DNA from: Candidatus Amesbacteria bacterium
GTDB lineage: Bacteria; Patescibacteriota; Microgenomatia; CAZETR01; Amesbacteraceae
Direction of reading: 5' to 3'
NCBI GenBank assembly: GCA_027331445.1
Contig: DAHWUD010000001.1
Location: 109,157 to 168,596 of the forward strand
Length of the DNA stretch: 59,440 nt
A program made the translations under genes and the position numbers. Under the pieces are notes generated by a model. The model was not told the origin of the DNA. It ran no database searches and worked only from the letters and a program-made list of their open reading frames with translations. Below, piece after piece: positions 4,837-51,371 of this stretch (the stretch's first letter is position 1; each line of letters starts with the position of its first letter).

Positions 4837-5385
4837 ATGACTGGTTATTCCTTCGTTGGCGTTGTGATCAAACGGCATAATTTGGGCGAAACTGACAAGC
4901 TGGTCACTTTTTTCACTTCCGAATTTGGCAAAATCACCCTGGTGGCCAAAGGCCTCCGCCGTCTGTCCTCCAAACGCGCCGCCAGTTTGGAATTGTTTAA
5001 CTTGGTCAAAGGTCACGCCGTGCAGGGCAGAGGATCATTGGATACTTTGACCGAAGTGGTTTTAATCAGATCCCCGCATGCCTGGCGCAAATATTTGGGC
5101 CGGATCGCCCTGGGTTATGAGCTCTGTGAGGTAGTCGATAAGCTCACCGCCGAGCACCAGCCTTTTCCCGCCACCTACCGCATCCTGGTTTCTAGCCTGA
5201 CCACCATCGGCTCGCTGGGTGACGATTGGCGTCGGGAATTTGACGCCTGGCTGGTGGACATTCTTAGAGATTTGGGTTATTGGCCCAAAGGCAGCGCTTT
5301 CACCGGCGATGTCATTACCTTTATTGAATCCATCTCCGAGCGCCGCCTCCACTCCCCCCGCCTACTAAAAAAGTTGGCCCAATGA
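4837..5385 (+). CDS. recO: DNA repair protein RecO
   Basis: GVVIKRHNLGETDKLVTFFTSEFGKITLVAKGLRR OB-fold start. recO-glyQS synteny. Confidence 0.9.
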   Translation: MTGYSFVGVVIKRHNLGETDKLVTFFTSEFGKITLVAKGLRRLSSKRAASLELFNLVKGHAVQGRGSLDTLTEVVLIRSPHAWRKYLGRIALGYELCEVVDKLTAEHQPFPATYRILVSSLTTIGSLGDDWRREFDAWLVDILRDLGYWPKGSAFTGDVITFIESISERRLHSPRLLKKLAQ

Positions 5386-5397
5386 TAGAATCAACGC

Positions 5398-6651
5398 ATG
5401 GACCCGACGGAAAAAATTGTCTCACTGACTAAGCGCAGGGGCTTTATCTATCCCGGTTCGGAGATCTATGGTGGTGTCGGCGGCATTTACGACTACGGCC
5501 CATTGGGTGTACTCATGAAAAATAACCTGAAGCAGCTTTGGTGGCAGTGGATGACTTTGGATCACGAAGATATCGTCGGCATCGACGGCGCCATTATTAC
5601 TCACCCTAAAGTCTGGGCAGCCAGCGGTCACGTTAAGGGATTTGTCGACCCTCTGACCGAATGCAAAAAATGCCACCACCGGTTTAAGGCTGATGATATC
5701 GACGGCCAAATCTGTCCCGACTGCGGCGGCGAACTGACCGCACCCAAAAATTTTAACACGCTCGTGCCTACGGAATTAGGAGTAATTGAGGAAGAAAAAG
5801 TCAAAACTTATCTGCGGGGCGAAGCCTGCCAGACCATTTACCTGAACTTCAAAAACGTGGTCGACTCTACTCGGGTCAAGCTCCCTTTCGGCATTGTTCA
5901 GATCGGTAAAGCTTTCCGAAATGAAGTCACTTTCGGAAATTTTATTTTCCGCCTGCGCGAGTTTGAGCAGTGGGACCTCCAGTGGTTTACTCGTCCGGAG
6001 GATATGGCTAAGTGGTATGACTACTGGAAGCAGGCCCGCATGGATTGGTATTCGTCGTTATTTAACCATCCCGAAAACTTAAGCTTCCACCAACACGAAA
6101 AATTAGCCTTTTATGCCCAAAAGGCCTTTGATATTCAATACCAGGGTCGGGAGATGGAAGGTATCCACTGGCGTTCGGATTGGGATTTGGGTCGGCATAG
6201 CCAGTTTAGTGGTCAGGACCTGACCTTTGAAGGCCTTATTCCCCACATCGTTGAGACCTCGGGCGGGGTTGACCGTTGCTTCCTGTTTCTGCTTTTGGAT
6301 GCCTATGCCGAAGAAGGGGAGCGGGTGATTCTCAAACTTCACCCCCGGATTGCTCCCGTCAAAGTTGCCGTCTTCCCGCTTCTGGCCAATAAGCCCGATT
6401 TGGTCGCAAAGGCTCGGGATATCTATAGACATCTTAAAACTCAGCTTCACCTCAGCACCATTTGGGATGATCGCGGCAATATCGGCAAGCGCTATTATGC
6501 CCAGGATGAAATCGGCACTCCCTGGTGCGTCACTGTGGATTTTCAGACCCTGGAAGATCACACGGTCACCATCCGTGATCGCGATTCCGCCTCCCAGATC
6601 CGTCTTCCCGCAGCCGAGCTTGACACTTATTTCACCAACCGTTTAAAGTAA
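5398..6651 (+). CDS. glyQS: Glycine--tRNA ligase, alpha2 (eukaryote/archaea-like) type
   Basis: KRRGFIYPGSEIYGG, YDYGPLG, LRGEACQ, QIGKAFRNE, FRLREFEQ, IGKRYYAQDEIGTPWCVTVD. Confidence 0.95.
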   Translation: MDPTEKIVSLTKRRGFIYPGSEIYGGVGGIYDYGPLGVLMKNNLKQLWWQWMTLDHEDIVGIDGAIITHPKVWAASGHVKGFVDPLTECKKCHHRFKADDIDGQICPDCGGELTAPKNFNTLVPTELGVIEEEKVKTYLRGEACQTIYLNFKNVVDSTRVKLPFGIVQIGKAFRNEVTFGNFIFRLREFEQWDLQWFTRPEDMAKWYDYWKQARMDWYSSLFNHPENLSFHQHEKLAFYAQKAFDIQYQGREMEGIHWRSDWDLGRHSQFSGQDLTFEGLIPHIVETSGGVDRCFLFLLLDAYAEEGERVILKLHPRIAPVKVAVFPLLANKPDLVAKARDIYRHLKTQLHLSTIWDDRGNIGKRYYAQDEIGTPWCVTVDFQTLEDHTVTIRDRDSASQIRLPAAELDTYFTNRLK

Positions 6652-6660
6652 CCTTAATCC

Positions 6661-7164
6661 ATGAAATCCAAGCTCACTATCGTGGTCATCATCCTGGTCG
6701 TGCTCATCGGTATCGGAATTGCCGCCGTAGTGAAGTTTGCCAAATCCTCTTTAAATACCCCGGTTCCCACCCCCACCCCGCTGCCAGAAGCCGTTCAATT
6801 GACTCCCGACCAGGCGCCCAAAGTCAGTCTTACCTTTACCGCCGACGCCCACTACGTCACCGTCAACATCACCAATCTGCACGCCGCCGCCCTGGAATAC
6901 GATTTGATCTATAACGCTGTCGTCAAGAATAACCAGATCAATACCGGCGTCAACGCCTCGGCCAAAATCGCCGGCCAATCCACTTATTCGCAGCAGCAGC
7001 TGTTAGGTAGTGAAAGCAGCGGCCACTTCACCTACCACACCAATATCACCGGCGCCACCATGGATCTGACTCTGCGAGATTCGGCCGGCCGCAGTATCTT
7101 TCAAGCCACTTACCCCTTCACCGTCACCGCCGGCGCCACCACCCCCCTCACAGCCTCCCAATAA
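6661..7164 (+). CDS. Hypothetical single-pass membrane protein with PTPTP linker and extracellular beta-rich domain
   Basis: 167-aa ORF filling the gap. Basic N-terminus, one TM, TPVPTPTP linker. Confidence 0.7.
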   Translation: MKSKLTIVVIILVVLIGIGIAAVVKFAKSSLNTPVPTPTPLPEAVQLTPDQAPKVSLTFTADAHYVTVNITNLHAAALEYDLIYNAVVKNNQINTGVNASAKIAGQSTYSQQQLLGSESSGHFTYHTNITGATMDLTLRDSAGRSIFQATYPFTVTAGATTPLTASQ

Positions 7165-7211
7165 ACTTTTGGTTCTACCCCCACCTCCAGCTTCTTCGCG
7201 TATTTTTTGTC

Positions 7212-7240
7212 TTGACACGCTCGTGAAAAGGGATCATAGT
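7212..7240 (+). promoter_or_regulatory. Sigma70-type promoter of the mraZ/dcw operon
   Basis: TTGACA (7212-7217), 17 nt spacer, CATAGT (7235-7240). Confidence 0.7.
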
Positions 7241-7264
7241 GGTACGTAGTGGTAAAAAGTGGTA
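7238..7264 (+). promoter_or_regulatory. MraZ operator: three AGTGGTA direct repeats with 10-bp period
   Basis: AGTGGTA at 7238, 7248 and 7258. GTGG cores 6 nt apart, as in known MraZ boxes, directly upstream of mraZ. Confidence 0.85.
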
Positions 7265-7271
7265 AATAAAT

Positions 7272-7703
7272 ATGTTTATAGGTCAGTTTGCTCATCACCT
7301 GGAAGAAAAAGGCCGCCTGTCCGTGCCCAAAAAATTCCGCTCCCAATTAACCGCCGGGGCCGTTCTTGCCCAGGGACTGGACGGTTGTCTGTTTCTTTAT
7401 CCGGCTGATGCCTGGTCGGAATTGGTGGCCAAACTTTCCTCCTTGCCCCTCACCCGGTCCGACGCCCGCAATTTCACCAGAAGTTTGAGTTTTGGTGCTA
7501 CCGAAGCCGAAATTGACCGTCTGGGCCGCATCCTGATTCCCGATTACCTGCGCCAATTTGCCGGTCTTAAAAGCGACTGTGTCGTTGCCGGGGCCGTGGA
7601 CCGCATCGAAATCTGGGACGCCAATAAATTTGCTGATTACACCGCCCAAATTAATTCCCGGGCCGAGGAGATTGCCGAAAAGCTGTCCTCGGAGGGGATT
7701 TAA
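7272..7703 (+). CDS. mraZ: Transcriptional regulator MraZ
   Basis: MFIGQFAHHLEEKGRLSVP, GLDGCLFLYP, IDRLGRILIP, GAVDRIEIW. Confidence 0.96.
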   Translation: MFIGQFAHHLEEKGRLSVPKKFRSQLTAGAVLAQGLDGCLFLYPADAWSELVAKLSSLPLTRSDARNFTRSLSFGATEAEIDRLGRILIPDYLRQFAGLKSDCVVAGAVDRIEIWDANKFADYTAQINSRAEEIAEKLSSEGI

Positions 7704-7704
7704 T

Positions 7705-8571
7705 ATGAGCGGGTTTCACACGCCAGTACTTTTACAATCAGTTTGCACTTTGCTAAACGTACAGCCGGGCCGCAAATATGTGGATGCGACTCTGGGCGGC
7801 GGCGGTCACACCGCTGCCATCGTTGAATTGGGCGGCCGCGTTTTGGGCCTGGATCAGGATCCCGACGCCATCGCCGCTTGCCGGTCCGCCGAAGCCTTTC
7901 AGCCTGCCCTGGCTTCGGCACAGGCGGACCCGCAGCTGGTTCTCGTCCGGGCCAATTTTATCCATTTATCAAAGGTCGTACAGCAGCACTCCTGGCAGCC
8001 GTTATGGGGGATTTTGCTGGATTTGGGGGTTTCCCTGCATCAGCTGGTTACTCCCCAGCGGGGCTTTTCCTTCCAGTCCGTAGGTCCCCTGGACATGCGC
8101 ATGGATCCGGATCTGCCCAACTCTGCCGCCACTCTGGTCAACGTCTTGACCGTGAAACAGTTAGAGCAGCTCTTCCGGGAGTACGGCGAAGAGCCGGCCG
8201 CAACGGCCGTTGCCCGCCGCATAGTTTCCGCCCGGCCGCTGGCCACTACCGATGAATTGGCCCGCATCTTGACCGATGCTCACCAGCGCCGCCGGGTTTT
8301 TCAAAGCCTGAGGATTGCCGTCAACGATGAACTGGCCGCTTTAAGCGCAGTTTTGCCCCAGGCTTTCGACCTGCTGCACCCCGGCGGCCGTTTAGTCATC
8401 ATTTCTTTTCATTCTCTGGAGGATCGGATTGTCAAAAATCAATTTTCTGCCTGGATCAGATCCGGCCGGGCCGTCTCTTTGACTGATCCGCCCGTCACTC
8501 CGGGTCCGGAAGAAATCTCTGCCAACCCGCATGCCCAAAGTGCCAAACTGCGCTCAATTGAAAAAATATGA
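7705..8571 (+). CDS. rsmH: 16S rRNA m4C1402 methyltransferase RsmH (start re-set to ATG 7705)
   Basis: HTPVLL, DATLGGGGH, DLGVS..QL, RGFSF, PLDMRM, ISFHSLEDRIVK, SAKLR. SD-like GGAGGGG upstream. Confidence 0.95.
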   Translation: MSGFHTPVLLQSVCTLLNVQPGRKYVDATLGGGGHTAAIVELGGRVLGLDQDPDAIAACRSAEAFQPALASAQADPQLVLVRANFIHLSKVVQQHSWQPLWGILLDLGVSLHQLVTPQRGFSFQSVGPLDMRMDPDLPNSAATLVNVLTVKQLEQLFREYGEEPAATAVARRIVSARPLATTDELARILTDAHQRRRVFQSLRIAVNDELAALSAVLPQAFDLLHPGGRLVIISFHSLEDRIVKNQFSAWIRSGRAVSLTDPPVTPGPEEISANPHAQSAKLRSIEKI

Positions 8572-8846
8572 ATACCCGGTTAGTCAAATTTATCATTTTT
8601 ATTAATCTCGTTTTGTTGGTCGGTCAATTTCTCATGACCAGCAGCCGGGCTACCGACGGTGCCCGTCTGGCCGACCTGACTTCACAGCTTTCCTCTCTCA
8701 ACCAGGCCAATCTGGATCTCAAAAACCAGATTTATCATTACAGCTCTATCCCATATATCTACTCGCAGGCCCAATCAGACCAGCTCGCACCCGCCCAGGT
8801 TTCTTATCTTACCCCCCTGCCTGTGGCTTCCGCGGCGCGGCCATGA
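8568..8846 (+). CDS. ftsL: FtsL-like cell division protein
   Basis: Position between rsmH and ftsI. One TM followed by a heptad coiled coil (LADLTSQLSSLNQANLDLKNQI). Confidence 0.55.
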   Translation: MNTRLVKFIIFINLVLLVGQFLMTSSRATDGARLADLTSQLSSLNQANLDLKNQIYHYSSIPYIYSQAQSDQLAPAQVSYLTPLPVASAARP

Positions 8847-10525
8847 CCACCCGGATCCGCCTTATCCACCTCTTTTTCTTCATCTGGCTCCTGCTCATCA
8901 TCGCCCGCCTGTCGTACTGGCAGATAGTCAAAGCCGCAGACCTGCGCGCCCAGGCGCAGCAGCAGTATTCTACTTCTCTCATCCTGCCCGCTTCCCGGGG
9001 TGAAATTCTTAGTTCGGACGGGTTCCCGCTGGTGACGAATACCGAAAATTATCTGCTCTATGCTCAGCCCCAGCTGATGCCCAAAGATTTTGCCACTCTC
9101 ACCAAACTCAGCTCGGCCTTGCCGGCCTCCGATAGTGCTGCCGTGGCCATGATTCCTACCAGTCATCTTTCCTGGCTGCCGCTGGCCCGCGATCTGGATG
9201 CACAGACCAAAGCCGCAGTTGCAGCTCTGCACATTCCCGGCCTGGGCTTTGAATCCCAACCTGTCCGCTACTATCCGGAAGGCAGCAGCAGCGCTTATAT
9301 TACCGGTTTTGTCGGCCAGGATGCCGCCGGCAACCCCGTCGGGTATTTTGGTCTTGAAGGCTACTACAACCGCCTGCTTTCCGGGAAACCCGGCCGCCTT
9401 CTAGAGCAACAGGATGCCTTCGCCCGTCCCATCCTTATCTCCGACCAGGATCGCATTCCTCCACAGGACGGCGGCACCATTACCACCTCCATCGACCGCA
9501 CCCTGCAGTATCTGGCCTGGCAGGAATTATCCGCCGGCATTCAGAAATACCAAACGGATAGCGGCACCATTTCTATTATGGACACGTCCACAGGCCGGAT
9601 TTTAGCAATGGTCGCCCTTCCCGGTTACGATCCCGCCCATTACGCTTCGTATGACACTTCGCTTTACAAAAACCCCGTCATTTCAGACTTTTATGAACCC
9701 GGGTCGACTTTCAAAACCGTCGTCATGTCCTCCGCCCTGGACTTAGGCGCGGTCACACCGGCCAGCCGCTGCACCATCTGCACCGGCCCGGTCACACTGT
9801 CCGGCCTGCTGGTTCACGACTACGACGACCAATATCACCCCAACAGCACTATGGCAGATATTATTCTGAATTCCGATAATGTCGGCATGGTCGGCGTGGC
9901 CCAAAAGATGGGTCGGGACGAGCTTCTCAGCTATATTCGCAAATTTGGTTTCGGCAAACTGACCGGCATTGACCTGCAGGAAGAAACTACTCCCGAACTG
10001 CGCCCCGACGCCGCCTGGGAAGACGTGGATTGGGGCACCGCCGCCTTTGGCCAGGGTATCGCCGTCACCCGCCTGCAATTACTCGCCGCCGTCAATGCCA
10101 TTGCCAATCACGGCTTATATATGCCCCCCCGGCTGGTTACCCGCATCACTTCCGGTGGTACCACCAAGGACCTGCCGCCCCCGCCGGGTATTCAGGTTAT
10201 TTCTGAAAAGGCCGCCTATGCCATGACCCAGATGATGGTAAACGGCGTCAACAACGGTGAAGTCCGTTACTACAAGCCCGCCGGCTTTGTCATCGCCGGA
10301 AAAACCGGGACCGCCCAGGTACCCATCGCCGGCCATTATGACCCCAACGCCGCGATCGCCTCCTTTGTCGGGTTTGCCCCGGCGGACAACCCGCGATTTA
10401 CCATGCTGGTTACGCTCAAAAACCCTAAAAACGGCCAGTGGGGGAGTACCACCGCCGCGCCTTTATGGTTCGATCTGGCCCAAAAAATCTTCCGTTATTA
10501 CAACATTTCCCCCCACCCCAATTAA
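8843..10525 (+). CDS. ftsI: Class B penicillin-binding protein (FtsI/PBP2-like transpeptidase)
   Basis: RGEILSSDG, SxxK (GSTFK), SxN (SDN) and KTG motifs all intact. dcw position. Confidence 0.9.
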   Translation: MTTRIRLIHLFFFIWLLLIIARLSYWQIVKAADLRAQAQQQYSTSLILPASRGEILSSDGFPLVTNTENYLLYAQPQLMPKDFATLTKLSSALPASDSAAVAMIPTSHLSWLPLARDLDAQTKAAVAALHIPGLGFESQPVRYYPEGSSSAYITGFVGQDAAGNPVGYFGLEGYYNRLLSGKPGRLLEQQDAFARPILISDQDRIPPQDGGTITTSIDRTLQYLAWQELSAGIQKYQTDSGTISIMDTSTGRILAMVALPGYDPAHYASYDTSLYKNPVISDFYEPGSTFKTVVMSSALDLGAVTPASRCTICTGPVTLSGLLVHDYDDQYHPNSTMADIILNSDNVGMVGVAQKMGRDELLSYIRKFGFGKLTGIDLQEETTPELRPDAAWEDVDWGTAAFGQGIAVTRLQLLAAVNAIANHGLYMPPRLVTRITSGGTTKDLPPPPGIQVISEKAAYAMTQMMVNGVNNGEVRYYKPAGFVIAGKTGTAQVPIAGHYDPNAAIASFVGFAPADNPRFTMLVTLKNPKNGQWGSTTAAPLWFDLAQKIFRYYNISPHPN

Positions 10526-10545
10526 GGCATATAATAAAGCCGTCT

Positions 10546-10902
10546 ATGCATGCCCACCACATTTCATTTAAACACGCATTTGAAGGCCTTATCACCGCAC
10601 TCAAAACCCAGCCCAACTTTCGTATCCATTTATTTTTTTCCCTGGGTGCCCTGGTTCTCGGGTTACTACTGCATATTTCCGGGATCCAATGGACCATTAT
10701 TGCCTTCACCATTGCCGGCGGCCTGGCCGTGGAACTGATCAATACTGCTATCGAGTTTACCGTCGATCTACTGACTGACCAGTATCACGTCCTGGCTAAA
10801 TACGCCAAGGACACAGCCGCTGCCGCCATGCTGGTCTACGCCGTGGGCAGCGTTGCCGTGGCCCTGCTTATTTTTCTGCCCAAACTATGGCCATATATTT
10901 AG
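10546..10902 (+). CDS. dgkA: Diacylglycerol/undecaprenol kinase family (DgkA/UdpK), start ATG 10546
   Basis: SFKHAFEGL..A...QPNFRIH, ELINTAIEFTVDL, AKYAKDTAAAAML. Confidence 0.9.
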   Translation: MHAHHISFKHAFEGLITALKTQPNFRIHLFFSLGALVLGLLLHISGIQWTIIAFTIAGGLAVELINTAIEFTVDLLTDQYHVLAKYAKDTAAAAMLVYAVGSVAVALLIFLPKLWPYI

Positions 10903-11912
10903 GCATTCTGCTCTTTGCCTTCATTACCGCCTCCATCGCCATCGTCCCTTACATTGACCTCCTTTATCGGCTCCGTTTCTTAAACCGCGCCCCTATCCAC
11001 CCGGCTACCCCGCTCGAAGATACCGAATTTTCCGCTTTGTCTCAAAAAGATCAGTGGAAAATCGGCACCCCTATCGGTGGGGGAGTCCTCATTATTGTCC
11101 TTGTCAGTCTGCTGTTTTATTTGCTGTTCCCCATGCTCATTAAATTTGGGGTTTATATCACCTCGGTTTTTCCGAGACGGCCCCAGCTTAATGTCATTTT
11201 CTTTACCTTTATCTCCTTCGGTCTGGTCGGTCTGTATGATGATTTAATTAAAGTCTTTCACCTGGCCCCGCGGTCAGACTGGAAAATAAAAACCGCTTTC
11301 GAGATTATTTTTTCCCTGCTTAGCGCCTATCTCATCCGTACCACCCTGCACGTCGGAATGGTTTATTTTCCCCTGCTGGGCATTCTGCATTTGGGCTGGC
11401 TTTATATTCCCGTCGCCGGCGCCATAATCTTCTTTTTTTGCCGCGCCATGGACATTACGGACGGCATGGACGGTTTATCCTCCGGCCTGCTCATCATCTG
11501 TCTCATGGCGTTCTGGGCCATTTCCGTTTCGATTTTAGATACGGTGCTGTCCACATTTATCGCGCTGTGGATCGGCTCCCTTCTGGCCTTTCTCTACTTC
11601 AATATCTACCCCGCCCGGATCTGGCTGGGAAATGCCGGCAGCCTGTCTTTTGGGGCTACTCTGGCCGTGACCGGGCTCCTGCTGGGTAAGATCTCGGTTT
11701 TATTTTTGATCGGCGGCATCTTTGCTCTCGAAGCTTTCATGCACTATTCCCAACGTTTGTCTTATCTCCTCTTTAAACGCCGGCTTTTTCCTGTTACACC
11801 TCTCCATTATTATTTGGAAAGTCAGGGCTGGTCGGAACCCAAAATTGTGCAGCGGCTGTGGTTGGTCGGTATCATCCTGGACTTCGTCGGCCTATGGCTC
11901 GCCACCGCCTGA
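10887..11912 (+). CDS. mraY: MraY (phospho-N-acetylmuramoyl-pentapeptide transferase) homolog with altered active-site residues
   Basis: GTPIGGG, GLYDDLIK, ITDGMDGL, FNIYPARI, PLH..E..GWSEPKIV..LW. About 10 hydrophobic segments. dcw position. Confidence 0.85.
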   Translation: MAIYLGILLFAFITASIAIVPYIDLLYRLRFLNRAPIHPATPLEDTEFSALSQKDQWKIGTPIGGGVLIIVLVSLLFYLLFPMLIKFGVYITSVFPRRPQLNVIFFTFISFGLVGLYDDLIKVFHLAPRSDWKIKTAFEIIFSLLSAYLIRTTLHVGMVYFPLLGILHLGWLYIPVAGAIIFFFCRAMDITDGMDGLSSGLLIICLMAFWAISVSILDTVLSTFIALWIGSLLAFLYFNIYPARIWLGNAGSLSFGATLAVTGLLLGKISVLFLIGGIFALEAFMHYSQRLSYLLFKRRLFPVTPLHYYLESQGWSEPKIVQRLWLVGIILDFVGLWLATA

Positions 11913-12955
11913 TCGCCCTTTTAGTAATTCTGCTTGTCTTCTTCGGCCTGATCATGGTCGCCAGCGCTTCCGTTGTCGACGCTGCCCGCGATTTTGGCGA
12001 TAAATGGTATTATCTCAAACTTCAAAGTGTCTGGGCCGCCCTCGGCTTGGTCGTTTTTTTTCTGGTTTCCCGCTGGCCGCATCAGCGCCTGGCCAAGTAC
12101 GCCCGGCCTTTGTTTTGGCTGACCACCGTTTTATTGTTGGCCGTGCTCATTCCCGGCATCGGTACCAAGCTTTTAGGCGCCCGCCGCTGGATTAACCTGG
12201 GTTTTTTCAACCTCCAGCCGGCCGAATTGGCCAAATTTTCCATCTGCGTCTATCTGGCTGCTCTGCTTAAAAAAACTTCGTCCTTTGCCGCTTTTCTTTT
12301 CCCGGTCGCGGTTTTTTCCGGCCTGGTATTTTTGGAGCCGGATCTGGGCACCGCCATGGTGGTTTCCATAGGCTCCCTCATCACTTATTTTGTTATTACC
12401 GGTAAAATCACCCAGATGGCCCTGGCCGCCCCCGTTGCCTTGTTGTTATTGTTGGCAGTGATTTTTTTATCTCCTTACCGGGCCTCCCGCTTTCAGGATT
12501 TTCTAAATTCTTCCCATGATACCCAGGGTTCTTCATATCAGATTCGCCAGGCCCTGTTGGCTCTGGGTTCCGGTGGCATTACCGGCGTCGGCCTCGGCCA
12601 ATCCCGAGAAAAATATGAATTTCTTCCCGAAGTGACCACCGATTCCATTTTTGCCGTCATCGGCGAGGAGTTGGGCCTCATCGGAGCCGTAGTTCTCCTG
12701 GTCGTCTTTTTTCTGCTTATTTCCACCGGTCTTCAGGTCGCCGCCCGGGCCCCGGCCCCTTTTTCCGCGAATTTAGCCCTGGCCGTCACCTCCCTCCTGG
12801 CAGTTCAGGCTTTTTTAAATATTTCCGCCATCATCGCCCTTTTACCATTGACCGGTATCCCCTTACCTTTTATTTCCTACGGCGGCTCTTCATTGGTCAT
12901 CGTTTTGCTCTCCATGGGTATCCTTGTTAATATTGCCAGAAGCGACCGCCTATGA
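11894..12955 (+). CDS. ftsW: SEDS peptidoglycan polymerase FtsW (start re-set to ATG 11894)
   Basis: GLIMVASAS, GARRWI, QPAELAK, EPDLGT, GLGQSREKYEFLPEVTTDSIFAVIGEELG, PFISYGGSS. Confidence 0.93.
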   Translation: MARHRLIALLVILLVFFGLIMVASASVVDAARDFGDKWYYLKLQSVWAALGLVVFFLVSRWPHQRLAKYARPLFWLTTVLLLAVLIPGIGTKLLGARRWINLGFFNLQPAELAKFSICVYLAALLKKTSSFAAFLFPVAVFSGLVFLEPDLGTAMVVSIGSLITYFVITGKITQMALAAPVALLLLLAVIFLSPYRASRFQDFLNSSHDTQGSSYQIRQALLALGSGGITGVGLGQSREKYEFLPEVTTDSIFAVIGEELGLIGAVVLLVVFFLLISTGLQVAARAPAPFSANLALAVTSLLAVQAFLNISAIIALLPLTGIPLPFISYGGSSLVIVLLSMGILVNIARSDRL

Positions 12956-14726: not shown

Positions 14727-14728
14727 TT

Positions 14729-15991: not shown

Positions 15992-15998
15992 CTTCTAC

Positions 15999-16007
15999 TG
16001 CTACAAT
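15999..16007 (+). promoter_or_regulatory. Extended -10 promoter candidate for ftsZ
   Basis: TGcTACAAT in the ftsA-ftsZ gap. Confidence 0.5.
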
Positions 16008-16053
16008 CAACCCGCTCCTGCCCTATAGCGTAATCTGCTCATCTTAATTTAAT

Positions 16054-17262: not shown

Positions 17263-17268
17263 AGACAT

Positions 17269-17532
17269 ATGGAAAAACAAACAGACCCCCGGACTAGGAC
17301 AGAATTTGCCAGCCGATTGTTAGGAAGGCCGGTGATGAACACCGAAGGTCATTTTGAGAACCCCATGGATTTTTCCTTCCTCATTATCGATAAAATCCAG
17401 TATTGTTCAGCAGACCCAAATACTTGCCTCCGGTTTTTAGCTGGACTTTGCTATATCCAGCACTGCACTATCAACGGCGTCCGTTGTCCAAATGCCCAAG
17501 CCGTAACAAGTGATCAAACTGTTGTAAAATAG
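17269..17532 (+). CDS. Hypothetical 87-aa protein with five Cys in the C-terminal half
   Basis: Fills the ftsZ-ileS gap. SD-like GGAAGGTG 6 nt before the ATG. Confidence 0.6.
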   Translation: MEKQTDPRTRTEFASRLLGRPVMNTEGHFENPMDFSFLIIDKIQYCSADPNTCLRFLAGLCYIQHCTINGVRCPNAQAVTSDQTVVK

Positions 17533-17536
17533 CCTC

Positions 17537-20380
17537 ATGGCTTTTCAACCGGTGTCCCCCCAAGTTAATTTTCCCGAACTCGAAAAGCAGATTCTTGATT
17601 GGTGGTATTCGTCCGGACTCGTCGATAGGTATCTGCACAAAAACGACTCCTCGGCCAAAAAATTCTCTTTCCTGGACGGTCCCATCACGGCCAACAATCC
17701 CATGGGCGTCCATCACGCCTGGGGCCGCACCTACAAAGACCTGTGGCAGCGCTATTTCACTATGCGTGGCTACGCCGGCCGCTATCAAAACGGCTTTGAT
17801 TGTCAGGGCCTGTGGGTCGAGGTCGAAGTCGAAAAGGAACTGGGTTTTAAGACCAAAAAAGATATCGAAGTCTATGGTGTGGCTAAATTTGTGGAGAAAT
17901 GTAAAGAGCGGGTCCTCAAATATTCGGCCATCCAGACCGAGCAAAGTAAACGCCTGGGCTATTTTATGGATTGGGACCGTTCTTACTTCACCATGTCCGA
18001 CGCTAATAATTATGCCATCTGGAATTTTCTCCAAGTCGTCTGGAACCGGGGCTGGCTGTATAAAGGCCACGATTCCGTTCCCTGGTGTCCCCGTTGTGAG
18101 ACCGCCATTTCCCAGCACGAAATGCTCACCGAAGATTACAAAGAAATTACTCACGATTCGGTCTTTATCAAGTTTCCCCTGGTGGATTTTCCCGGGGAGT
18201 CGCTTCTGGTCTGGACAACTACTCCCTGGACTGTCCCGGCCAATATCGCCGTCGCAGTTGATCCCAAATTGGATTATGTTTTAGTGAGCGGCCTGTGGGT
18301 CGTCCGGGAAGCGGCACATCGTCTGTTCGGCGACTTTAACCAGCAAAACACCCTTCCTGGGAAAAAGCTGGTCGGCAGGCGCTATATAGGCCCGTTTGAT
18401 CACCTGCCGGCGGTTCAAAAAGTAGCAGAACATAAACTCTTTCATACCGTCATTCCCACCGACGCCCGCATTATGCCGATCAATACCGAAGAGGGGACGG
18501 GCCTGGTCCATACCGCCGTCTCTGCCGGAGAAGAGGACTTTAAGTTGGGCCAAAAATTGGGACTGCCCTTGATCCCCGTGATTGCCGACAATGCCGATTA
18601 CCTGCCCGGTCTGGGTGAATTTACGGGCCAAAATGCCAAGAAACATCCGGAAATTATTCTGGACTACCTCAAAAGTCATGATTTTGCATACAAAGTCGAA
18701 AAATATACCCACCGTTATCCTGCCTGCTGGCGTTGCAAGACCGAGCTGGTCTGGAAAATTGCCGATGAGTGGTACATTTCTATGGATACTCCCGACCCCA
18801 CCGATCCCGGCGGTTTGACGCTTAGAAAACAGCTCCTGGCTGTCGCCAAAAAGATTCACTGGCTTCCCGGTTTCGGCAAGGACCGGGAACTGGATTGGTT
18901 GAAAAATATGCACGACTGGCTCATTTCCAAAAAGAACCGCTATTGGGGCTTGGCTTTACCCATTTACGAGTGTCCCGCCTGTCATCATTTTGAAGTCATC
19001 GGTAGTAAGGAGGATCTGGAACACCGCGCCGTCAGTGGCTGGGAGGAGTTTGCCGGGAATACTCCCCATAAGCCCTGGATTGACGCCGTTAAAATCCGCT
19101 GTTCCCGCTGCTCCGCCGTTGTTTCCCGCATTCCCGACGTGGGCAATCCCTGGTTGGACGCCGGGATCGTCTCTGTCTCCACGCTTCCTGCTGCCTGGTT
19201 TCCGGCCGATTTTATCACCGAGTCCTTCCCTGGCCAGTTCAAAAATTGGTTTTATTCCCTCATCGTCATGAGCACTGTTTTAAAAAAGACCTTCCCCACT
19301 AAAACCATTTTGGGTTACGCTTCGGTAGTTGGCGAAGACGGCCGGCCCATGCACAAATCCTGGGGTAATGCCGTCGAATTCAATGAGGGAGCGGAACAAA
19401 TCGGCGCCGACGTCATGCGCTGGATGTTCGTCAGTCAATCACCGGAAGCCAACCTTCCGTTTGGCTTTAGGCTGGCCGATGACACCCGGCGTCATTTTCA
19501 TCTCATGCTCTGGAACGTCTACAACTTCTTTTTGACTTATGCCTCTCTGGATGGTTTTGATCCGGCCGCCACTCCGGATCCAGGCTCGCTGTCCGCGCTG
19601 GATCGGTGGCTAAATATCCGCCTGTCCCAGACGGTTAAGTCCGTCACCGCCGCTCTTGACCGCTACGACTCCCGCTCTGCCGCTCTTAGTCTGGAGCAGT
19701 ATGTGAACGACTTGTCTTTATGGTATGTCCGCCGCTCCCGCGACCGCGTCGGCCCTACCGCCGCCAACCCGGTCGACAAACTTGCCTGTCATACGACTTT
19801 GTTTACCAACTTGGTGACCTTAAGCCAACTGCTGGCTCCCTTCCAGCCCTTTATCTCGGAGTCCATCTACAAAAACCTCACCGGTCGCGAATCGGTTCAT
19901 CTATCAAACTGGCCCAAGCCGGCTCCAATGAGTACCAAAAATACTCAGCTGATCTCATCTATGGAATCTGTGCGCAGAATTGTAGAAATGGGCCTTTCCC
20001 AGCGAAAAAACCTGCAGATAAAGGTTCGCCAGCCTCTCTCCGGAGCTGTCATTTCTTCTCCGTCTCCGGCTCTGTCCCCACCCCTTTGCGACCTGATCCG
20101 GGATGAGCTGAACCTCAAACATCTGGCCTGGGAGAAGGGTCCCGATTTAGTGGTCACCCTGGATCCCCGCCTGGACGATCAGTTGCGGGCTGAGGGTCAG
20201 GCCCGGGATCTGATCCGCCAGATTCAGGAACAGCGCAAGATCAAGGGTGCCAGGTTGGACCAACCCATCCGCCTTATTGCCCCCTTGCCTCCCGACCCCG
20301 TTTTAGTCCGGGAAATCACCCGCCAGACTCTGGCCCGCGAGGTCTCGATAGGTAGCCCCGTCGAGGTAGAATTACTTTAA
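17537..20380 (+). CDS. ileS: Isoleucine--tRNA ligase, type 2 (IleRS2)
   Basis: FLDGPITAN..GVHH, GFDCQGL, WTTTPWT, GTGLVH, DWLISKKNRYWG, PMHKSWGN. C-terminus of IleRS2 type without the IleRS1 Zn finger. Confidence 0.95.
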   Translation: MAFQPVSPQVNFPELEKQILDWWYSSGLVDRYLHKNDSSAKKFSFLDGPITANNPMGVHHAWGRTYKDLWQRYFTMRGYAGRYQNGFDCQGLWVEVEVEKELGFKTKKDIEVYGVAKFVEKCKERVLKYSAIQTEQSKRLGYFMDWDRSYFTMSDANNYAIWNFLQVVWNRGWLYKGHDSVPWCPRCETAISQHEMLTEDYKEITHDSVFIKFPLVDFPGESLLVWTTTPWTVPANIAVAVDPKLDYVLVSGLWVVREAAHRLFGDFNQQNTLPGKKLVGRRYIGPFDHLPAVQKVAEHKLFHTVIPTDARIMPINTEEGTGLVHTAVSAGEEDFKLGQKLGLPLIPVIADNADYLPGLGEFTGQNAKKHPEIILDYLKSHDFAYKVEKYTHRYPACWRCKTELVWKIADEWYISMDTPDPTDPGGLTLRKQLLAVAKKIHWLPGFGKDRELDWLKNMHDWLISKKNRYWGLALPIYECPACHHFEVIGSKEDLEHRAVSGWEEFAGNTPHKPWIDAVKIRCSRCSAVVSRIPDVGNPWLDAGIVSVSTLPAAWFPADFITESFPGQFKNWFYSLIVMSTVLKKTFPTKTILGYASVVGEDGRPMHKSWGNAVEFNEGAEQIGADVMRWMFVSQSPEANLPFGFRLADDTRRHFHLMLWNVYNFFLTYASLDGFDPAATPDPGSLSALDRWLNIRLSQTVKSVTAALDRYDSRSAALSLEQYVNDLSLWYVRRSRDRVGPTAANPVDKLACHTTLFTNLVTLSQLLAPFQPFISESIYKNLTGRESVHLSNWPKPAPMSTKNTQLISSMESVRRIVEMGLSQRKNLQIKVRQPLSGAVISSPSPALSPPLCDLIRDELNLKHLAWEKGPDLVVTLDPRLDDQLRAEGQARDLIRQIQEQRKIKGARLDQPIRLIAPLPPDPVLVREITRQTLAREVSIGSPVEVELL

Positions 20381-21444: not shown

Positions 21445-21483
21445 TTGCCAAATAGCTCATCTTTCAGGTATAATCCAAAGGCT

Positions 21484-21852
21484 ATGCAGGCAGTAGTTAA
21501 AATCGGCGGTTCCCAATATTTGGTTTCTCCCGGGCAGGAAATTCTGGTGGACCATTTGACTTCGCCGGCCAAACAACTGACTTTTTTGGAAGTCCTGCTG
21601 ACCATCGATGGAAAAGACGTTCGTGTCGGCCAGCCGTTTCTTCCCGGTTTGGCGGTCACGGCGACGTTAATGGCCAATGTCAAAGGGGAAAAAATCCGTG
21701 TGGCCAAATTTAAGGCCAAAAGCCGCTACCGCAAAGCCGTGGGCTTCCGCCCTCTTTATTCCCGGATCAAAATTGAATCCGTCGGTTCCCCGTCTCCGGT
21801 CTCAGCCCCCACTGCTCCCGCCAAGGCATCCCGGCGCCGCAAAGCTGTGTAA
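21484..21852 (+). CDS. rplU: 50S ribosomal protein L21 (start ATG 21484)
   Basis: MQAVVKIGGSQY, KGEKIRVAKFKAKSRYRK..GFR. Low-complexity C-terminal tail. Confidence 0.95.
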   Translation: MQAVVKIGGSQYLVSPGQEILVDHLTSPAKQLTFLEVLLTIDGKDVRVGQPFLPGLAVTATLMANVKGEKIRVAKFKAKSRYRKAVGFRPLYSRIKIESVGSPSPVSAPTAPAKASRRRKAV

Positions 21853-21860
21853 ATTAATTC

Positions 21861-21889
21861 TTGACATTCGTGAAAACGACATGTAAATT
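21861..21889 (+). promoter_or_regulatory. Sigma70-type promoter for rpmA-parB
   Basis: TTGACA (21861-21866), 17 nt, TAAATT (21884-21889), 8 nt before the ATG. Confidence 0.7.
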
Positions 21890-21897
21890 TAGCCCAT

Positions 21898-22143: not shown

Positions 22144-22146
22144 TTT

Positions 22147-23525: not shown

Positions 23526-23568
23526 GGGATCATTATGCCGCCTATGTTAAAATTTGTCGAGAAGTTCA

Positions 23569-28678: not shown

Positions 28679-28734
28679 TATTAATTGTTACCTGATAAAA
28701 ACGAATATGTCAAGAAGATGATAAGATATAAGAC

Positions 28735-34691: not shown

Positions 34692-35946
34692 GCGCTCCTT
34701 AGTCTTTTTAAGTCTGATTTTTATCTTGGGCTTGTTTCTGCGCCTCTATCTGCTTTCCTCTACCATGCCGTTTATCGGTGACCAGGCCTGGTTTTTTCTG
34801 TCTGCTCGCGACGCTTTGTTGACCGGCCGTTTTCCCCTGCTGGGAATTACCAGCAGTGTGACCTGGCTGCATCAGGGTTCACTTTATACTTACCTGCTCA
34901 TCCCCGAACTGGCCCTGTCTCATTTTCACCCGGTATCCGGGGCAATTTTCACGGCCTTCCTCAGTGCAGTCACAATTATTCTCTGCTATTTTTTGGGCCG
35001 GATTTGGTTTGACTCCCGCGGCGGCTTGACCGCAGCTTTCATTTTTGCCACCAGCCCTTTGGCTATCATCCATGCCCGGATGCCTTATCACACCTCGCCC
35101 ATTCCATTCTTTATGGCTCTGCTGCTGCTTTTCCTCTCCCGCCGCAAATATTTCATTTCTTTCCTGGTGCTGGGCCTGCTGTATCAACTGGAGCTCGTGA
35201 CTGTGGTCCTGTGGCCGGTTTTTATTTTCTTTTTGGTTAAAAATCGTTACTCTCCCCGCTTCCGGGATTTCATGGCTTTTGCTGTGGGCATCCTGCCCTT
35301 CCTGCTTTCCGGGCCGGTTTCCACAGTCGGCGTTTTTGTCTGGACCGCCTACCATTGGCTAACCGCCGCCTCGACTGGCCCGGCCACTGTCCCCTTTTAT
35401 CTGGTTTTGTTGCAGCATTTTTTCCTCCCCGGCCTGCCCGCGCTGGCAGCGGTTATCTTGCTTGTCTCCGTGCTTTTTGCCCTTTGGCGTAAAAAATCTG
35501 AGCTTCTTTGGCTGCTGCTGCCCCTGGTCGTTATCTTTTTCAATAAAACCACCTCCGAAGCGTATTTTTCGCTCCTGCTTCTTCCCCTGGCTTTATTTTC
35601 CGGGTACTTCCTTTCCCGGTTGTTTGTAAAAAACACCTTGTTTATCCTTTTTTTAGGCTGGTGGCTGGTCAACATCCACTATCTGCTCATCCGTGATTAT
35701 GCCCTGGACCCCGGCTCTTACGGAGCCGGCCTTTCCTCCCGCCTGGCCGTTTCCGATGCCATTCTGGCCGCCAGCGCCACCTCTGTTCCTCGTCTTACAG
35801 CTGTCGGCCCCGGCAGCCAGTTTGCCACCACCGTCGACCCCTACCGCTATTTAATTTGGTGGCGGGGCCTCACCCGGCCGCCGGGCGGGAAATATCTCAA
35901 CTTTGTCATCGATGATGCTGCCCAAACCTGGCGGGTGCTACAATAA
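34681..35946 (+). CDS. GT-C fold (ArnT/PMT_2-like) membrane glycosyltransferase
   Basis: FLRLY....PFIGDQA, HQG.LY.YLL, A.IFATSP..I..AR pattern. Multi-TM. Confidence 0.75.
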   Translation: MSAKRSLVFLSLIFILGLFLRLYLLSSTMPFIGDQAWFFLSARDALLTGRFPLLGITSSVTWLHQGSLYTYLLIPELALSHFHPVSGAIFTAFLSAVTIILCYFLGRIWFDSRGGLTAAFIFATSPLAIIHARMPYHTSPIPFFMALLLLFLSRRKYFISFLVLGLLYQLELVTVVLWPVFIFFLVKNRYSPRFRDFMAFAVGILPFLLSGPVSTVGVFVWTAYHWLTAASTGPATVPFYLVLLQHFFLPGLPALAAVILLVSVLFALWRKKSELLWLLLPLVVIFFNKTTSEAYFSLLLLPLALFSGYFLSRLFVKNTLFILFLGWWLVNIHYLLIRDYALDPGSYGAGLSSRLAVSDAILAASATSVPRLTAVGPGSQFATTVDPYRYLIWWRGLTRPPGGKYLNFVIDDAAQTWRVLQ

Positions 35947-38526: not shown

Positions 38527-38562
38527 AGCTTCATTTTACCCCCGCTGTTAAAATAATGCTGT

Positions 38563-38930: not shown

Positions 38931-38956
38931 TGCCAAATTATATCCTATGATGACTT

Positions 38957-40327: not shown

Positions 40328-40351
40328 CGGGATTGTTATATCATTAAACTC

Positions 40352-41311: not shown

Positions 41312-41333
41312 CCTCGTCTGATATATTTGAGTC

Positions 41334-41864: not shown

Positions 41865-41934
41865 GATAACAAGTCTGCAGCAATCCTCTTTTCCCCCAAG
41901 AAGAAACTATAGGTCTGTTATAATAGCGTCTATC

Positions 41935-43209: not shown

Positions 43210-43536
43210 CTAGATTTCTTTTTCAGCAATTATCTTCTTTTCCAACTCGTCCATGGATTCCATAAAGGTCTTTTCTAAATTTACTCCATACTTCTCTGCC
43301 AATACCATTACACACCACAAACAATCTGATAATTCATGGGCTAACTTTTTATCGACATCTTCAATTTTCCTAATACCAGATTTCCCCATTACAAGCTTCA
43401 TCAGGTCACCCACATCTCCTACAAACCCTTCCATAATTTGTTCTCTATTCCATTCCTTTCCATACTTTTTTAATTCCATTTCAGAATACTTGCCTCGTAT
43501 CTCAACTGCCCTATGTATAACCTTTTGGAAATCCAT
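43210..43536 (-). CDS. MazG-like nucleotide pyrophosphohydrolase
   Basis: GDVGDLMK, HELSDCLW....LA..YGVNLE all-alpha NTP-PPase pattern. AT-rich. Confidence 0.8.
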   Translation of the reverse strand: MDFQKVIHRAVEIRGKYSEMELKKYGKEWNREQIMEGFVGDVGDLMKLVMGKSGIRKIEDVDKKLAHELSDCLWCVMVLAEKYGVNLEKTFMESMDELEKKIIAEKEI

Positions 43537-43575
43537 ATCCGAAGTATATCAGCTTATACCAACTATAACACTCAG

Positions 43576-43646
43576 AGCGGGATAAGGGAATCGAACCCTC
43601 TTCTCATCCTTGGGAAGGATGCATTCTACCGGTGAACTAATCCCGC
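43576..43646 (-). tRNA. tRNA-Gly(CCC)
   Basis: Reverse complement GCGGGAT/ATCCCGC acceptor, CATCC-ttCCCaa-GGATG, TTCGATT T-loop, 71 nt. Confidence 0.95.
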
Positions 43647-44287: not shown

Positions 44288-44376
44288 GTCAGTCTTTCCG
44301 GGCAGAAAGAGCAATTTGTCCACAATATATACCCGGTATTTTCGATTTTCAACCCCCAAGTGTTATATTTATCACT

Positions 44377-44883: not shown

Positions 44884-44897
44884 CCGCAATCCGCTTG

Positions 44898-44971
44898 CGG
44901 AGCCGACGGGGTTCGGACCCGCGACCTCTGCCTTGACAGGGCAGCGCTCTAACCAGCTGAGCTACGACTCC
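44898..44971 (-). tRNA. tRNA-Asp(GTC) with T-loop variant TCCGAAC
   Basis: Reverse complement GGAGTCG/CGGCTCC acceptor, CTGCC-ctGTCaa-GGCAG, G discriminator. Confidence 0.92.
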
Positions 44972-45037
44972 ATGTTACGACTCTACTTCCCCAATTTTAC
45001 TATATTTAGGCCAGATTTTATCTGCTACAATGATTTT

Positions 45038-47846: not shown

Positions 47847-47872
47847 TGGATGTCAGGTAGTAAAATATCACT

Positions 47873-48799: not shown

Positions 48800-48804
48800 C
48801 GCCC

Positions 48805-51366
48805 ATGGAACCCCAGAACTTCACCACCGCTGCCCAGTCCGCCCTCGAATTTGCCCTTCAAAGTGCTTCCCAAAACCACCACCCGAAAGTAACTTCCCTC
48901 CACCTGGGTCTGGCCCTGTTATCTGATCCGGATTCGCTGATCGCCACCGCCCTTTCCCGTTTTAATCTCCGGGTTTCGGACATTACCGGCCGGATAAATG
49001 ACCAAATATCCCGACTTCCCCGGGTTTCAACCGATCAAATGCCGAAAATTAGTCCTGAACTTACCTCTGTCCTGCACCAAGCCGCCCGGGAAGCAAAAAA
49101 TCTCAATGATACCTACATAAGCAGGGAACACCTATTCCTAGCACTTCTCTTGACAGAGTGCCAAATATCCTCTATTCTAAAAAACAGCAGTTTAAATTAT
49201 GCTTCTGCTAAACAAATTATCATGAGTGAACGCGGAGCGCAAGCAGCAACTGACCCCGAAGCCGAAAGTCGTTATCAGGCCTTGGCCAAATACACCCTTA
49301 ATCTTACAAATCAGGCCAAAGACGGTCGGCTTGACCCGGTTATCGGCCGGGATGATGAGGTTCGCCGGGTGATGCAGATCCTCTCCCGCCGGACCAAGAA
49401 CAACCCTGTACTTATAGGTGATCCGGGCGTCGGTAAAACCGCCATTGTTGAGGGTTTGGCCCAGCGTATTGTCGCCGGTGATGTCCCGGAGACCCTCAAG
49501 GGTAAAGAGCTTCTGTCTCTGGACCTGGCGGCTCTTCTGGCCGGGGCCAAATTCCGGGGGGAGTTTGAAGACCGCCTCAAAGCCGTGCTTAAGGAAATCG
49601 AAGCCGGCAGCGGTCGGTATCTGCTGTTCATGGATGAATTGCATACTTTGGTAGGTGCGGGAGCTGCCGAAGGCGCCGTCGACGCGGCCAATATCCTCAA
49701 GCCCGCCCTGGCCAGGGGGCTACTCCACGCTATCGGGGCCACCACTATCCGGGAATATCGCCAATACATAGAAAAAGACGCCGCCCTGGAACGGCGTTTT
49801 CAGCCCGTTTTGGTCGGGGAGCCGTCTATCGAGGATAGCATTGCCATACTGCGTGGTCTCAAGGAAAAATATGAACTCCACCACGGAGTCCGCATTACCG
49901 ACGATGCCATTATCGCTGCCGTCACCCTTTCCACCCGCTACATTCCCGATCGTTTTCTGCCCGACAAAGCCATAGATCTAATCGACGAGGCCACCAGCAG
50001 CCTCAGAATGGATATTGACTCTCAGCCCTCCGAGCTGGACGCTCTTAAACGGCGGGCCACTCAGATCGAAATCGAGTTAGCGGCTCTCAAACGCGAGCGT
50101 GAAGAGACCGTGAAAACTCGCCGGGCCGATTTGCAGCGCCAGCTGGCCGATCTAAAAGAATCCATTTCTTCCTGGACTTCCCGCTGGCAGCGGGAAAAGG
50201 ACCTCATCCAAAAGATTCGGGAACTGAGCCGGACCCAGGATCGCCTCCGTCAGGAGTTGGAAACTGCCGAACGCCAGATTCAGCTTGAAAAAGCCGCCGA
50301 AATCAAATACGGTCAGCTGCCGGCCCTGCAAAAACAACAGCAGGATCTGCAAAACCGATTAGCCGCCATTCCCCAGGAAGACCGCGTCCTGCGGGAAGAA
50401 GTCACCGAAGACGACATCGCCAAAGTCGTCGCCCGCTGGACCGGCATCCCGGTTTCCCGCCTCGTATCTTCCGAAAAAAACCGTCTCACCGACCTGGAAA
50501 AAGAACTCTCAAAACTCATCGTCGGTCAGGAAGAGGCGGTTACCCAGGTAGCCAAAGCCATTCGGCGTTCCCGCGCCGGCATTGCCGATGTTAACCGCCC
50601 CATTGCCTCCTTTATCTTTTTAGGTCCTACCGGCGTAGGTAAAACCGAACTCGCCAAAGCTTTGGCCCAAACCCTTTTTTCCGACGAAAACGCCTTGATC
50701 AGGATTGATCTCTCCGAATATCAGGAGCCGCATTCTGTTGCCCGGTTGATCGGGGCTCCTCCCGGTTATGTGGGATTTGAAGAAGGGGGTCAGCTCACCG
50801 AATCCGTGCGCCGCCGGCCTTATTCGGTTATTCTTTTCGATGAAATTGAAAAAGCCCATCGGGATATCTTCAATGTCTTTCTTCAGATTTTGGACGACGG
50901 CCGGCTCACCGACGGTAAGGGCCGGGTCATCAATTTCAAAAACACCATCATTATCATGACCAGCAATTTGGGTTCCGATCTGGTCCGGGAAAATCCTCCG
51001 GACCTTCCTCAAAAACTCAACGCCCTGTTGCATCAGACCTTCCGTCCGGAGTTTCTCAATCGTGTAGATCAAATCATTGTCTTCGACGCTCTGACTCCGG
51101 CTCAGTTGGAAAAAATTGTCGATTTACAGATTCAATTGGTCTCGCAAAGATTGTCAGGCCAGAATATTTCCTTGTCCGTTACTTCGGCCGCTAAAAAATT
51201 GCTATCCCGCATCGGCTATGACCCAGATTATGGAGCCCGGCCGCTCAAACGGGCTATCCAGGACACTATTTTGGACGAGCTGGCCCTGCGGATTATCGAG
51301 AACCAAATAAAACCGGGTGACACCGTCAAAGTTGATGCCAAAGGCGAGAAAATTATGCTAAACTGA
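48805..51366 (+). CDS. clpB: Chaperone ClpB
   Basis: Two Clp_N repeats, GDPGVGKT and GPTGVGKT Walker A motifs, long middle-domain coiled coil, GARPLKR. Confidence 0.97.
49138..49164. promoter_or_regulatory. CIRCE (HrcA operator) inside clpB
   Basis: CTAGCACTT-N9-GAGTGCCAA versus consensus TTAGCACTC-N9-GAGTGCTAA (15/18, exact 9-nt spacer). Confidence 0.8.
49150..49178 (+). promoter_or_regulatory. Sigma70 promoter inside clpB, overlapping the CIRCE
   Basis: TTGACA (49150-49155), 17 nt, TATTCT (49173-49178), in an AT-rich patch. In-frame ATG at 49222. Confidence 0.75.
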
Positions 51367-51371
51367 GCCAT

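Follow-up and report, generated by a model that had tools for sequence, protein, structure and literature searches.

The stretch of DNA described here (the window) spans 59,440 nucleotides (nt), C11:109157-168596, of the genome of an ultra-small bacterium, a Candidatus Amesbacteria of mine-drainage metagenome origin (925 kb, 59 contigs, ~94% complete, ~52% GC). Many of its genes are preceded, a few bases before the start codon, by a hexamer resembling the -10 box of a bacterial promoter, a position that would leave the mRNA with little or no leader. A preliminary description had listed 17 such sites, 13 of them with 6 or 7 nt between hexamer and start codon (the spacer) and four with 8-10 nt. 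We checked the named sites by reading the 45 nt upstream of each start codon, and every hexamer and spacer is as listed there. The minus-strand sites among them are lepB 23525, 38526 and 38930, together with 43536. Boxes beyond that list precede rodA at 20380, a glycosyltransferase gene at 35952, an ABC ATPase gene at 23701 and a mannose-1-phosphate guanylyltransferase gene at 996, the last lying outside the range that had been described. The sites are given below in order, with the coordinates of the hexamer and, where a family model (NCBIfam or Pfam) is named, the protein residue and the model position at which the two align.

978..983, plus strand: extended TGtTAAAAT, 12 nt to ATG 996 of the mannose-1-phosphate guanylyltransferase gene; NF012004, residue 5 to position 3.
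5386..5391, plus strand: TAGAAT, 6 nt to ATG 5398 of glyQS; NF003211, residue 5 to position 2.
10530..10535, plus strand: TATAAT, 10 nt to ATG 10546 of dgkA; PF01219, residue 9 to position 1.
17525..17530, plus strand: TAAAAT, 6 nt to ATG 17537 of ileS; TIGR00392, residue 8 to position 4.
20367..20372, plus strand: TAGAAT, 7 nt to ATG 20380 of rodA; TIGR02210, residue 7 to position 1.
21469..21474, plus strand: TATAAT, 9 nt to ATG 21484 of rplU, with TTGCCA at 18 nt; L21 models, residue 1 to position 1.
21884..21889, plus strand: TAAATT, 8 nt to ATG 21898 of rpmA, with a perfect TTGACA at 17 nt; TIGR00062, residue 1 to position 1.
23532..23537, minus strand: weak CATAAT, 6 nt to ATG 23525 of lepB, with TCGACA at 17 nt; TIGR02227, residue 16 to position 5.
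ABC ATPase gene: TAGTAT, 8 nt to the start at 23701.
28722..28727, plus strand: extended TGaTAAGAT, 7 nt to ATG 28735 of a methyltransferase gene.
35939..35944, plus strand: extended TGcTACAAT, 7 nt to ATG 35952 of the glycosyltransferase gene.
38533..38538, minus strand: TAAAAT, 6 nt to ATG 38526 of a gene for an Ig-like repeat protein.
38937..38942, minus strand: TATAAT, 6 nt to ATG 38930 of the gene starting there.
40339..40344, plus strand: TATCAT, 7 nt to ATG 40352 of the gene starting there.
41322..41327, plus strand: extended TGaTATATT, 6 nt to GTG 41334 of the gene starting there, with TTGAAT at 18 nt.
41919..41924, plus strand: extended TGtTATAAT, 10 nt to ATG 41935 of a radical SAM gene.
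43543..43548, minus strand: extended TGaTATACT, 6 nt to ATG 43536 of the gene previously called mazG.
44364..44369, plus strand: extended TGtTATATT, 7 nt to GTG 44377 of a cytidylyltransferase-like gene.
45026..45031, plus strand: extended TGcTACAAT, 6 nt to GTG 45038 of a nudix gene; TIGR00586, residue 4 to position 4.
47861..47866, plus strand: TAAAAT, 6 nt to ATG 47873 of htpX; NF003425, residue 4 to position 2.
51359..51364, plus strand: extended TGcTAAACT, 7 nt to ATG 51372 of gatC; TIGR00135, residue 2 to position 5.

Across the window, ~15 of 57 genes score at least 6 bits at spacer 6-7, against 1-2 expected (p = 2e-10). Several boxes lie at the very end of the preceding gene: the TGa before the glyQS box is the stop codon of the upstream open reading frame (ORF), the ileS box overlaps the end of the upstream ORF 17269..17532, the rodA box sits within the 3' end of ileS, and the gatC box overlaps the TGA stop of clpB. 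Between the divergent genes 38930 (minus) and 38957 (plus), a gap of only 26 nt (38931-38956) holds both -10 boxes back to back, that of 38957 reading TATGAT. Judging by their spacers, rpmA and rplU would have leaders of ~2 nt and ~3 nt, respectively. A perfect TTGACA in the -35 position was seen in two promoters, that of rpmA (21855-21889, 17 nt) and that of an 886-amino-acid (aa) minus-strand gene starting at 28675 (28684-28713, 18 nt); most other promoters of the window have no recognisable -35. For the gene called mazG, the box TATACT at spacer 6 stands and the name does not, since the minus-strand ORF 43536..43210 matches no family model. In the same region (43210-43585), a greedy longest-ORF call chose the plus-strand ORF 43253..43585, which has a low-complexity translation, over this boxed 108-aa ORF, a case in which the -10 box serves as an aid to choosing the coding strand.

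The pattern runs through the genome. Our genome-wide set contained 847 non-overlapping ORFs of at least 100 aa, with 835 starts usable for spacer counts, and the longest-ORF start was used for the spacer statistics, so that the motif could not bias the choice of start. TANNNT stands exactly 6 nt before 136 of these 835 starts (16.3%). For 11,608 start codons lying in frame inside genes the figure is 0.6%, and in-frame spacers other than 6 give 2.5-5.9% (p = 2e-26 for spacer 6 against the highest of these). A genome-wide peak of this kind had been predicted in the preliminary description, and it is sharp at spacer 6. A weight matrix for the -10, derived from the spacer-6 TANNNT sites and applied at a cut-off of at least 7 bits with no choice of start, matched 95 times at spacer 6, 25 times at spacer 7 and 74 times over spacers 8-12, compared with 1-6 per spacer at 1-5, ~2 per position at 13-60 and ~1 per position inside genes. 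The scarcity of boxes at spacers 1-5 and the tail reaching to 12 are expected of promoters, because the start site cannot lie inside the gene. After background subtraction, ~60% of the strong -10 boxes found within 150 nt upstream of genes have spacers of 6-12. The same script was run on 150 kb of Thermus thermophilus pTT27, a positive control from a lineage with known leaderless genes, where it found a peak (5.2% vs ~0.2%), and on 150 kb of E. coli K-12, which has the same GC content as this genome and gave 1.4% at spacer 6 and no peak. The enrichment of the box before start codons is far above chance.

The composition of the boxes points to promoters of the sigma-70 type. The hexamer positions that the search left free read A/T, A and A, yielding the consensus TAtAAT, and TGn precedes the hexamer at 30% of sites genome-wide against 6% expected (p = 1e-25); in the window it was seen at 10 of 23 sites, in line with the earlier remark that many boxes carry it. 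TTGACA-like hexamers (at least four of six matches) peak exactly 17 nt from the -10 (13% vs ~4% at other spacings, p = 8e-8). The information peak spans -12..-7, TG occupies -15/-14, and nothing stands out near -26. A conventional two-hexamer promoter scan returned 24 sites vs 14.2 +/- 3.8 in shuffles, which we do not take as evidence; since it requires a good -35, the scan overlooks the majority of these promoters.

Boxes are nearly absent before overlapping genes and common at the heads of transcription units, as the following frequencies illustrate.

Gene overlapping its upstream neighbour: box in 6%.
Gap of 0-15 nt: box in 27%.
Gap of 16-40 nt: box in 44%, with a further 16% at spacers 8-12.
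All divergent genes: box in 32% at spacer 6-7, with a further 13% at spacers 8-12 (45% together).
Divergent genes with a gap of 0-50 nt: box in 51 of 70 (73%).

The median gap of divergent pairs with boxes is 36 nt. The earlier observation that the boxes often lie inside the upstream gene is borne out by 127 same-strand cases: 40 have a -10 that overlaps the upstream ORF, and in another 37 the -35 region overlaps it. By threshold, 207 of 837 ORFs have a box at spacer 6-7 and 81 more have one at spacers 8-12. A threshold-free lower bound was taken from the largest gap between the distribution of scores at spacers 6-7 and that at control spacers; it puts the share at 20-25% for genes as a whole and at 27-35% for divergent unit heads. 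Of the divergent heads, ~51% have a box once overlapping divergent ORF pairs are dropped, because these are likely to be calling errors. The defensible range for the share of transcription units with a leaderless-type promoter is a third to a half. By these figures, the earlier inference that most transcription units start leaderless is overstated as to 'most', although such a proportion is possible.

Any argument from spacing depends on the start codons, and those of boxed genes (80% ATG, 16% GTG and 4% TTG, or 96% ATG/GTG) are backed as correct by family models and by homology to relatives. For 11 genes of the window, alignments to full-length models begin at protein residues 1-16 and model positions 1-5, and the L27 and L21 models align with the proposed proteins from the first residue of each. 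We compared the genes with ~2 Mb of CPR (candidate phyla radiation, or Patescibacteria) DNA by tblastn, and homology begins no more than 5 residues from the proposed start in 64% of boxed genes vs 44% of the others. Where a boxed gene had 8 or more open codons ahead of its start (41 genes), homology reached further than 3 aa upstream in just 7, which agrees with a false-call rate of 10-17%. In dozens of genomes, the ileS N-terminus, MFKPV..., is conserved as far as the ATG that follows the box. The preliminary description had also stated that the box corrects ORF starts, which holds: the starts are those of rplU (21484, where the L21 model aligns from residue 1), nudix (45038) and dgkA (10546); the longer nudix ORF from 44933 runs over a tRNA-Asp gene (44897-44971).

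Shine-Dalgarno (SD) pairing has no detectable part in this genome. The 16S rRNA 3' end reads ...GGATCACCTCCTTTCT, and the anti-SD is therefore intact. Nevertheless, the SD 4-mers GGAG, GAGG and AGGA occur at -16..-5 of 9.8% of starts vs 9.5% of decoys genome-wide, and neither these nor GGAGG have a positional peak before starts, whereas the same pipeline gave 37% vs 6% in E. coli. SD motifs had been described as rare, which agrees with these counts; the SD-like sites noted before rsmH, the 17269 ORF and lemA are of a kind that is no commoner than chance genome-wide. We considered that misplaced starts might hide the SD, and rejected this, as taking any candidate start within 120 nt still gave 26.9% vs 28.8% in decoys.

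All starts, boxed or not, have in common a U at -1 (38-48% vs 19% at internal in-frame ATGs), a depletion of G at -1 (11-12% vs 32%) and an A-rich stretch at -8..-3 (e.g., 47229, 21483 and 21897 in the window). This U(-1), G-poor, A-rich upstream sequence is a general SD-free start context. Genome-wide, an ATGA overlap of exactly 4 nt joins 72 pairs of same-strand genes, with examples in the window at 8843, 12952, 14040, 24408 and 29469, and gaps of +1 to +4 nt are also common; these arrangements suggest stop-start coupling of operon-internal genes. The genome encodes a short bS1 (369-aa frame), bS21 and IF3. The bS21 gene is at G000:C55:29777-29914; the model that detects it has no match in the leaderless-rich control genomes, those of Thermus, Deinococcus and Corynebacterium. 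A role of bS21 in leaving the anti-SD unused has been proposed for Bacteroidetes.

We suggest, with a probability of about 85%, that the hexamers are sigma-70-type -10 elements that put the transcription start at, or a few bases before, the start codon. This was the core of the preliminary description, and it is supported by every sequence-level test that we ran. We regard as shown the position, composition, context dependence and conservation of the box, the correctness of the start codons and the absence of SD enrichment; where transcription starts and how ribosomes are loaded is what we infer. The housekeeping sigma-70 holoenzyme would recognise mostly the extended -10, with little help from a weak -35. 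At spacers 6-7, transcription would begin on the start codon's own A or G, after the usual discriminator of 6-7 nt, and at spacers 8-12 it would begin 2-6 nt before that codon, a spacing that matches the published rule for leaderless bacterial genes (PMC6028130, PMC3160421). Such mRNAs would have no room for a ribosome-binding site, and the ribosome and initiator tRNA would have to bind the 5'-terminal AUG or GUG directly, while downstream cistrons are probably reached by stop-start coupling or reinitiation at the ATGA overlaps and 1-4 nt gaps. With a -10 box at 6-7 nt before about a quarter of all genes and roughly half of the unit heads, and with SD motifs at chance level, it is likely that many mRNAs have the AUG as their very first bases.

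Several points weigh against this proposal or soften its numbers. Probably ~10-17% of the boxed calls are false, and all percentages are blurred by an ORF set that is a crude longest-ORF call without genes of less than 100 aa. The three metatranscriptomes of the source study, compared with positions 5001-25000 of the window, contained no RNA of the organism, the one match being a 32-nt ftsZ-like piece from another organism; searches of RNA runs for loci of two relatives likewise gave no match. As many boxes are inside or just behind the upstream gene, leaderless transcripts may occur alongside read-through ones that carry a long 5' part. Finally, a pyrimidine is found at -1 in 75% of spacer-6 starts but also in 70% of unboxed starts, so that this feature, although it fits the usual Y-1/R+1 preference, does not discriminate for a start site.

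What else could place such a hexamer before a start codon? The boxes might be real promoters with translation often starting at a downstream codon, in which case the mRNAs would be leadered and the pattern would come partly from ORF extension. Of 41 informative genes, 13 do have homology that sets in over 5 residues past the proposed start, and in 8 of these over 20 residues past it, but N-termini are variable and the count is weak evidence. An unused start codon would not be selected at exactly 6 nt, and the 64% of boxed starts lying within 5 residues of the homology boundary, the residue-1 alignments of L27 and L21, the alignment of glyQS, htpX, gatC, rodA, ileS, nudix and dgkA from model positions 1-5 and the conserved ileS N-terminus behind its box all make this explanation improbable. 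It is slightly less probable still that the A/T-rich hexamer is read in RNA, as a non-SD element bound by the ribosome or S1 like that proposed for A-rich motifs of Bacteroidetes, again with leadered mRNAs. The lack of SD enrichment in a genome that keeps bS1 (in its short form), bS21 and IF3 would fit such an element, as would the A-rich, G-poor context common to all starts. However, a translation signal would be expected before operon-internal genes too, and the hexamer is at background (6%) before overlapping genes; the upstream TG and the TTGACA at 17 nt are features of sigma-70 DNA recognition with no translation role, and divergent pairs with gaps of 0-50 nt have no room for leaders.

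An artefact of composition or gene calling, with in-frame TAA and TAG stops and AT-rich intergenic DNA mimicking TANNNT, is the least credible explanation. Upstream stops do raise the in-frame spacers 0, 3, 9 and 12 somewhat (2.5-5.9%), and the upstream stop codon falls within the hexamer in 10 boxed genes, but spacer 6 is 3-6 times as frequent as the other in-frame spacers, the TATAAT consensus emerges at the hexamer positions left free, decoy windows give 0.5%, and E. coli with the same GC content and pipeline has no peak. The frame-matched spacers and the E. coli control rule out the stop-codon artefact.

Relatives have kept the box at this position. The nearest relatives of the window ileS, at 55-67% amino-acid identity, are in Candidatus Amesbacteria and other Microgenomates (CPR/Patescibacteria). 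We sampled 80 Microgenomates loci around ileS, of which 79 were counted, and TANNNT lies at spacer 6-9 of the homologous start in 64 of these 79 genomes, against 11-17 of 79 in control windows (p = 2e-14). The 417 other ORFs of these loci have a box peak at spacers 6-9 as well, with SD at background (6.4% vs 5.8%). A genome of the same class (400-kb sample) has a spacer-6 peak of 12.6% and a weak SD signal (10.4% vs 5.6%), and a genome of another class has a peak of 10.7% and a moderate SD signal (16.4% vs 4.9%). Over 60 Patescibacteria genomes (loci L082-L141), SD frequency and box frequency are anticorrelated (Spearman -0.44, p = 5e-4). The phylum is heterogeneous, with some lineages SD-rich and lacking a box peak and others the reverse, and the present genome is at the SD-free end. 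A second ileS fragment in the assembly (G000:C43:3-581, on a contig of 583 bp), 79% identical to the window ileS, is a strain variant or a binning contaminant.

Leaderless genomes as classified by GeneMarkS-2 ('group C') are mainly those of Actinobacteria and Deinococcus-Thermus (PMC6028130), and the 'TA-led' genes of Zheng et al. 2011 are the corresponding leaderless-type class (PMC3160421). Like those of Mycobacterium, Corynebacterium, Streptomyces and Deinococcus-Thermus, the genome studied here has a Pribnow box 6-8 nt before first-gene starts, which are ATG or GTG, and its spacing peak is that of the Thermus control. Group C is characterised by a signal in more than ~20% of genes or 25-50% of operons, and we found it in 207 of 837 ORFs, with lower bounds of 20-25% of genes and 27-35% of divergent heads; the signal is limited to first genes in group C, and here it precedes 6% of overlapping genes vs 44-60% of those with a gap of 16-40 nt and 45-73% of divergent ones. 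In contrast to group C and TA-led genomes, where SD is used for internal and leadered genes, no SD enrichment was seen, bS21 is present where the Thermus, Deinococcus and Corynebacterium controls lack it, and CPR/Microgenomates are not among the lineages described. Transcription starts have been mapped experimentally in those genomes, whereas here we infer them from sequence.

Haloarchaea such as Haloferax volcanii have mostly leaderless transcripts and do not need SD pairing for the leadered ones (cited in PMC6028130). The resemblance to the present genome lies in pervasive leaderless first cistrons, a retained anti-SD and no functional reliance on SD, but H. volcanii uses an archaeal TATA box near -26 and archaeal initiation factors, while here a bacterial -10 lies at -12..-7, with TGn and a 17-nt spacing to the -35; no promoter box ~26 nt upstream, as in archaeal-type (group D) genomes, was found. 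The SD-less initiation of Bacteroidetes/FCB ('group B', PMC6028130) is similar in its intact but unused anti-SD and in its A-rich, G-poor context. In group B, however, one and the same RNA motif precedes every gene and leaderless transcripts are few, whereas here a DNA promoter signal marks unit heads, overlapping genes lack it, and only the diffuse A-rich, U(-1) context is shared. Within the same phylum, Tsurumaki et al. 2022 reported that half of Parcubacteria have lost the anti-SD motif, with no mention of leaderless mRNAs (PMC9297842). These Parcubacteria are a separate line of evidence that parts of CPR can do without SD pairing, but they have lost the 16S motif that is kept as ...GGATCACCTCCTTTCT in this Microgenomates genome.

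Our search of one literature library found no paper linking leaderless mRNAs with CPR, Patescibacteria, Saccharibacteria or Microgenomates; a TM7x transcriptome preprint leaves promoters, untranslated regions and leaderless mRNAs unmentioned, and an MBE 2025 and a NAR 2025 paper name 'leaderless' in passing. What we describe is a known expression mechanism in a lineage where that search found no report; what sets it apart is that SD motifs are not enriched at all although the anti-SD is intact. Tentatively, and with a little less than an even chance of being right, we extend this to the idea that Microgenomates-type CPR initiate translation without any SD pairing, through leaderless heads, reinitiating downstream cistrons and, for the rest, the U(-1), A-rich, G-poor context. 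If this is true, the phylum would have undergone repeated switches between two start-codon grammars and would be a natural system for the loss and gain of SD dependence.

CPR/Patescibacteria, which account for a large part of bacterial diversity, have been seen almost exclusively as metagenome bins, and the programs that call their genes rely on SD motifs and on the longest ORF. Should unit heads be leaderless and SD go unused, a -10 box at 6-7 nt would be the best available marker of the start codon, and promoters would be readable from sequence. Promoters placed inside the preceding gene or back to back would explain how they fit into a genome with gaps of 0-40 nt, and leaderless unit heads would set expectations for the expression of CPR genes in other hosts. 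They would also add a deep-branching, ribosome-reduced lineage to the debate on ancestral leaderless initiation.

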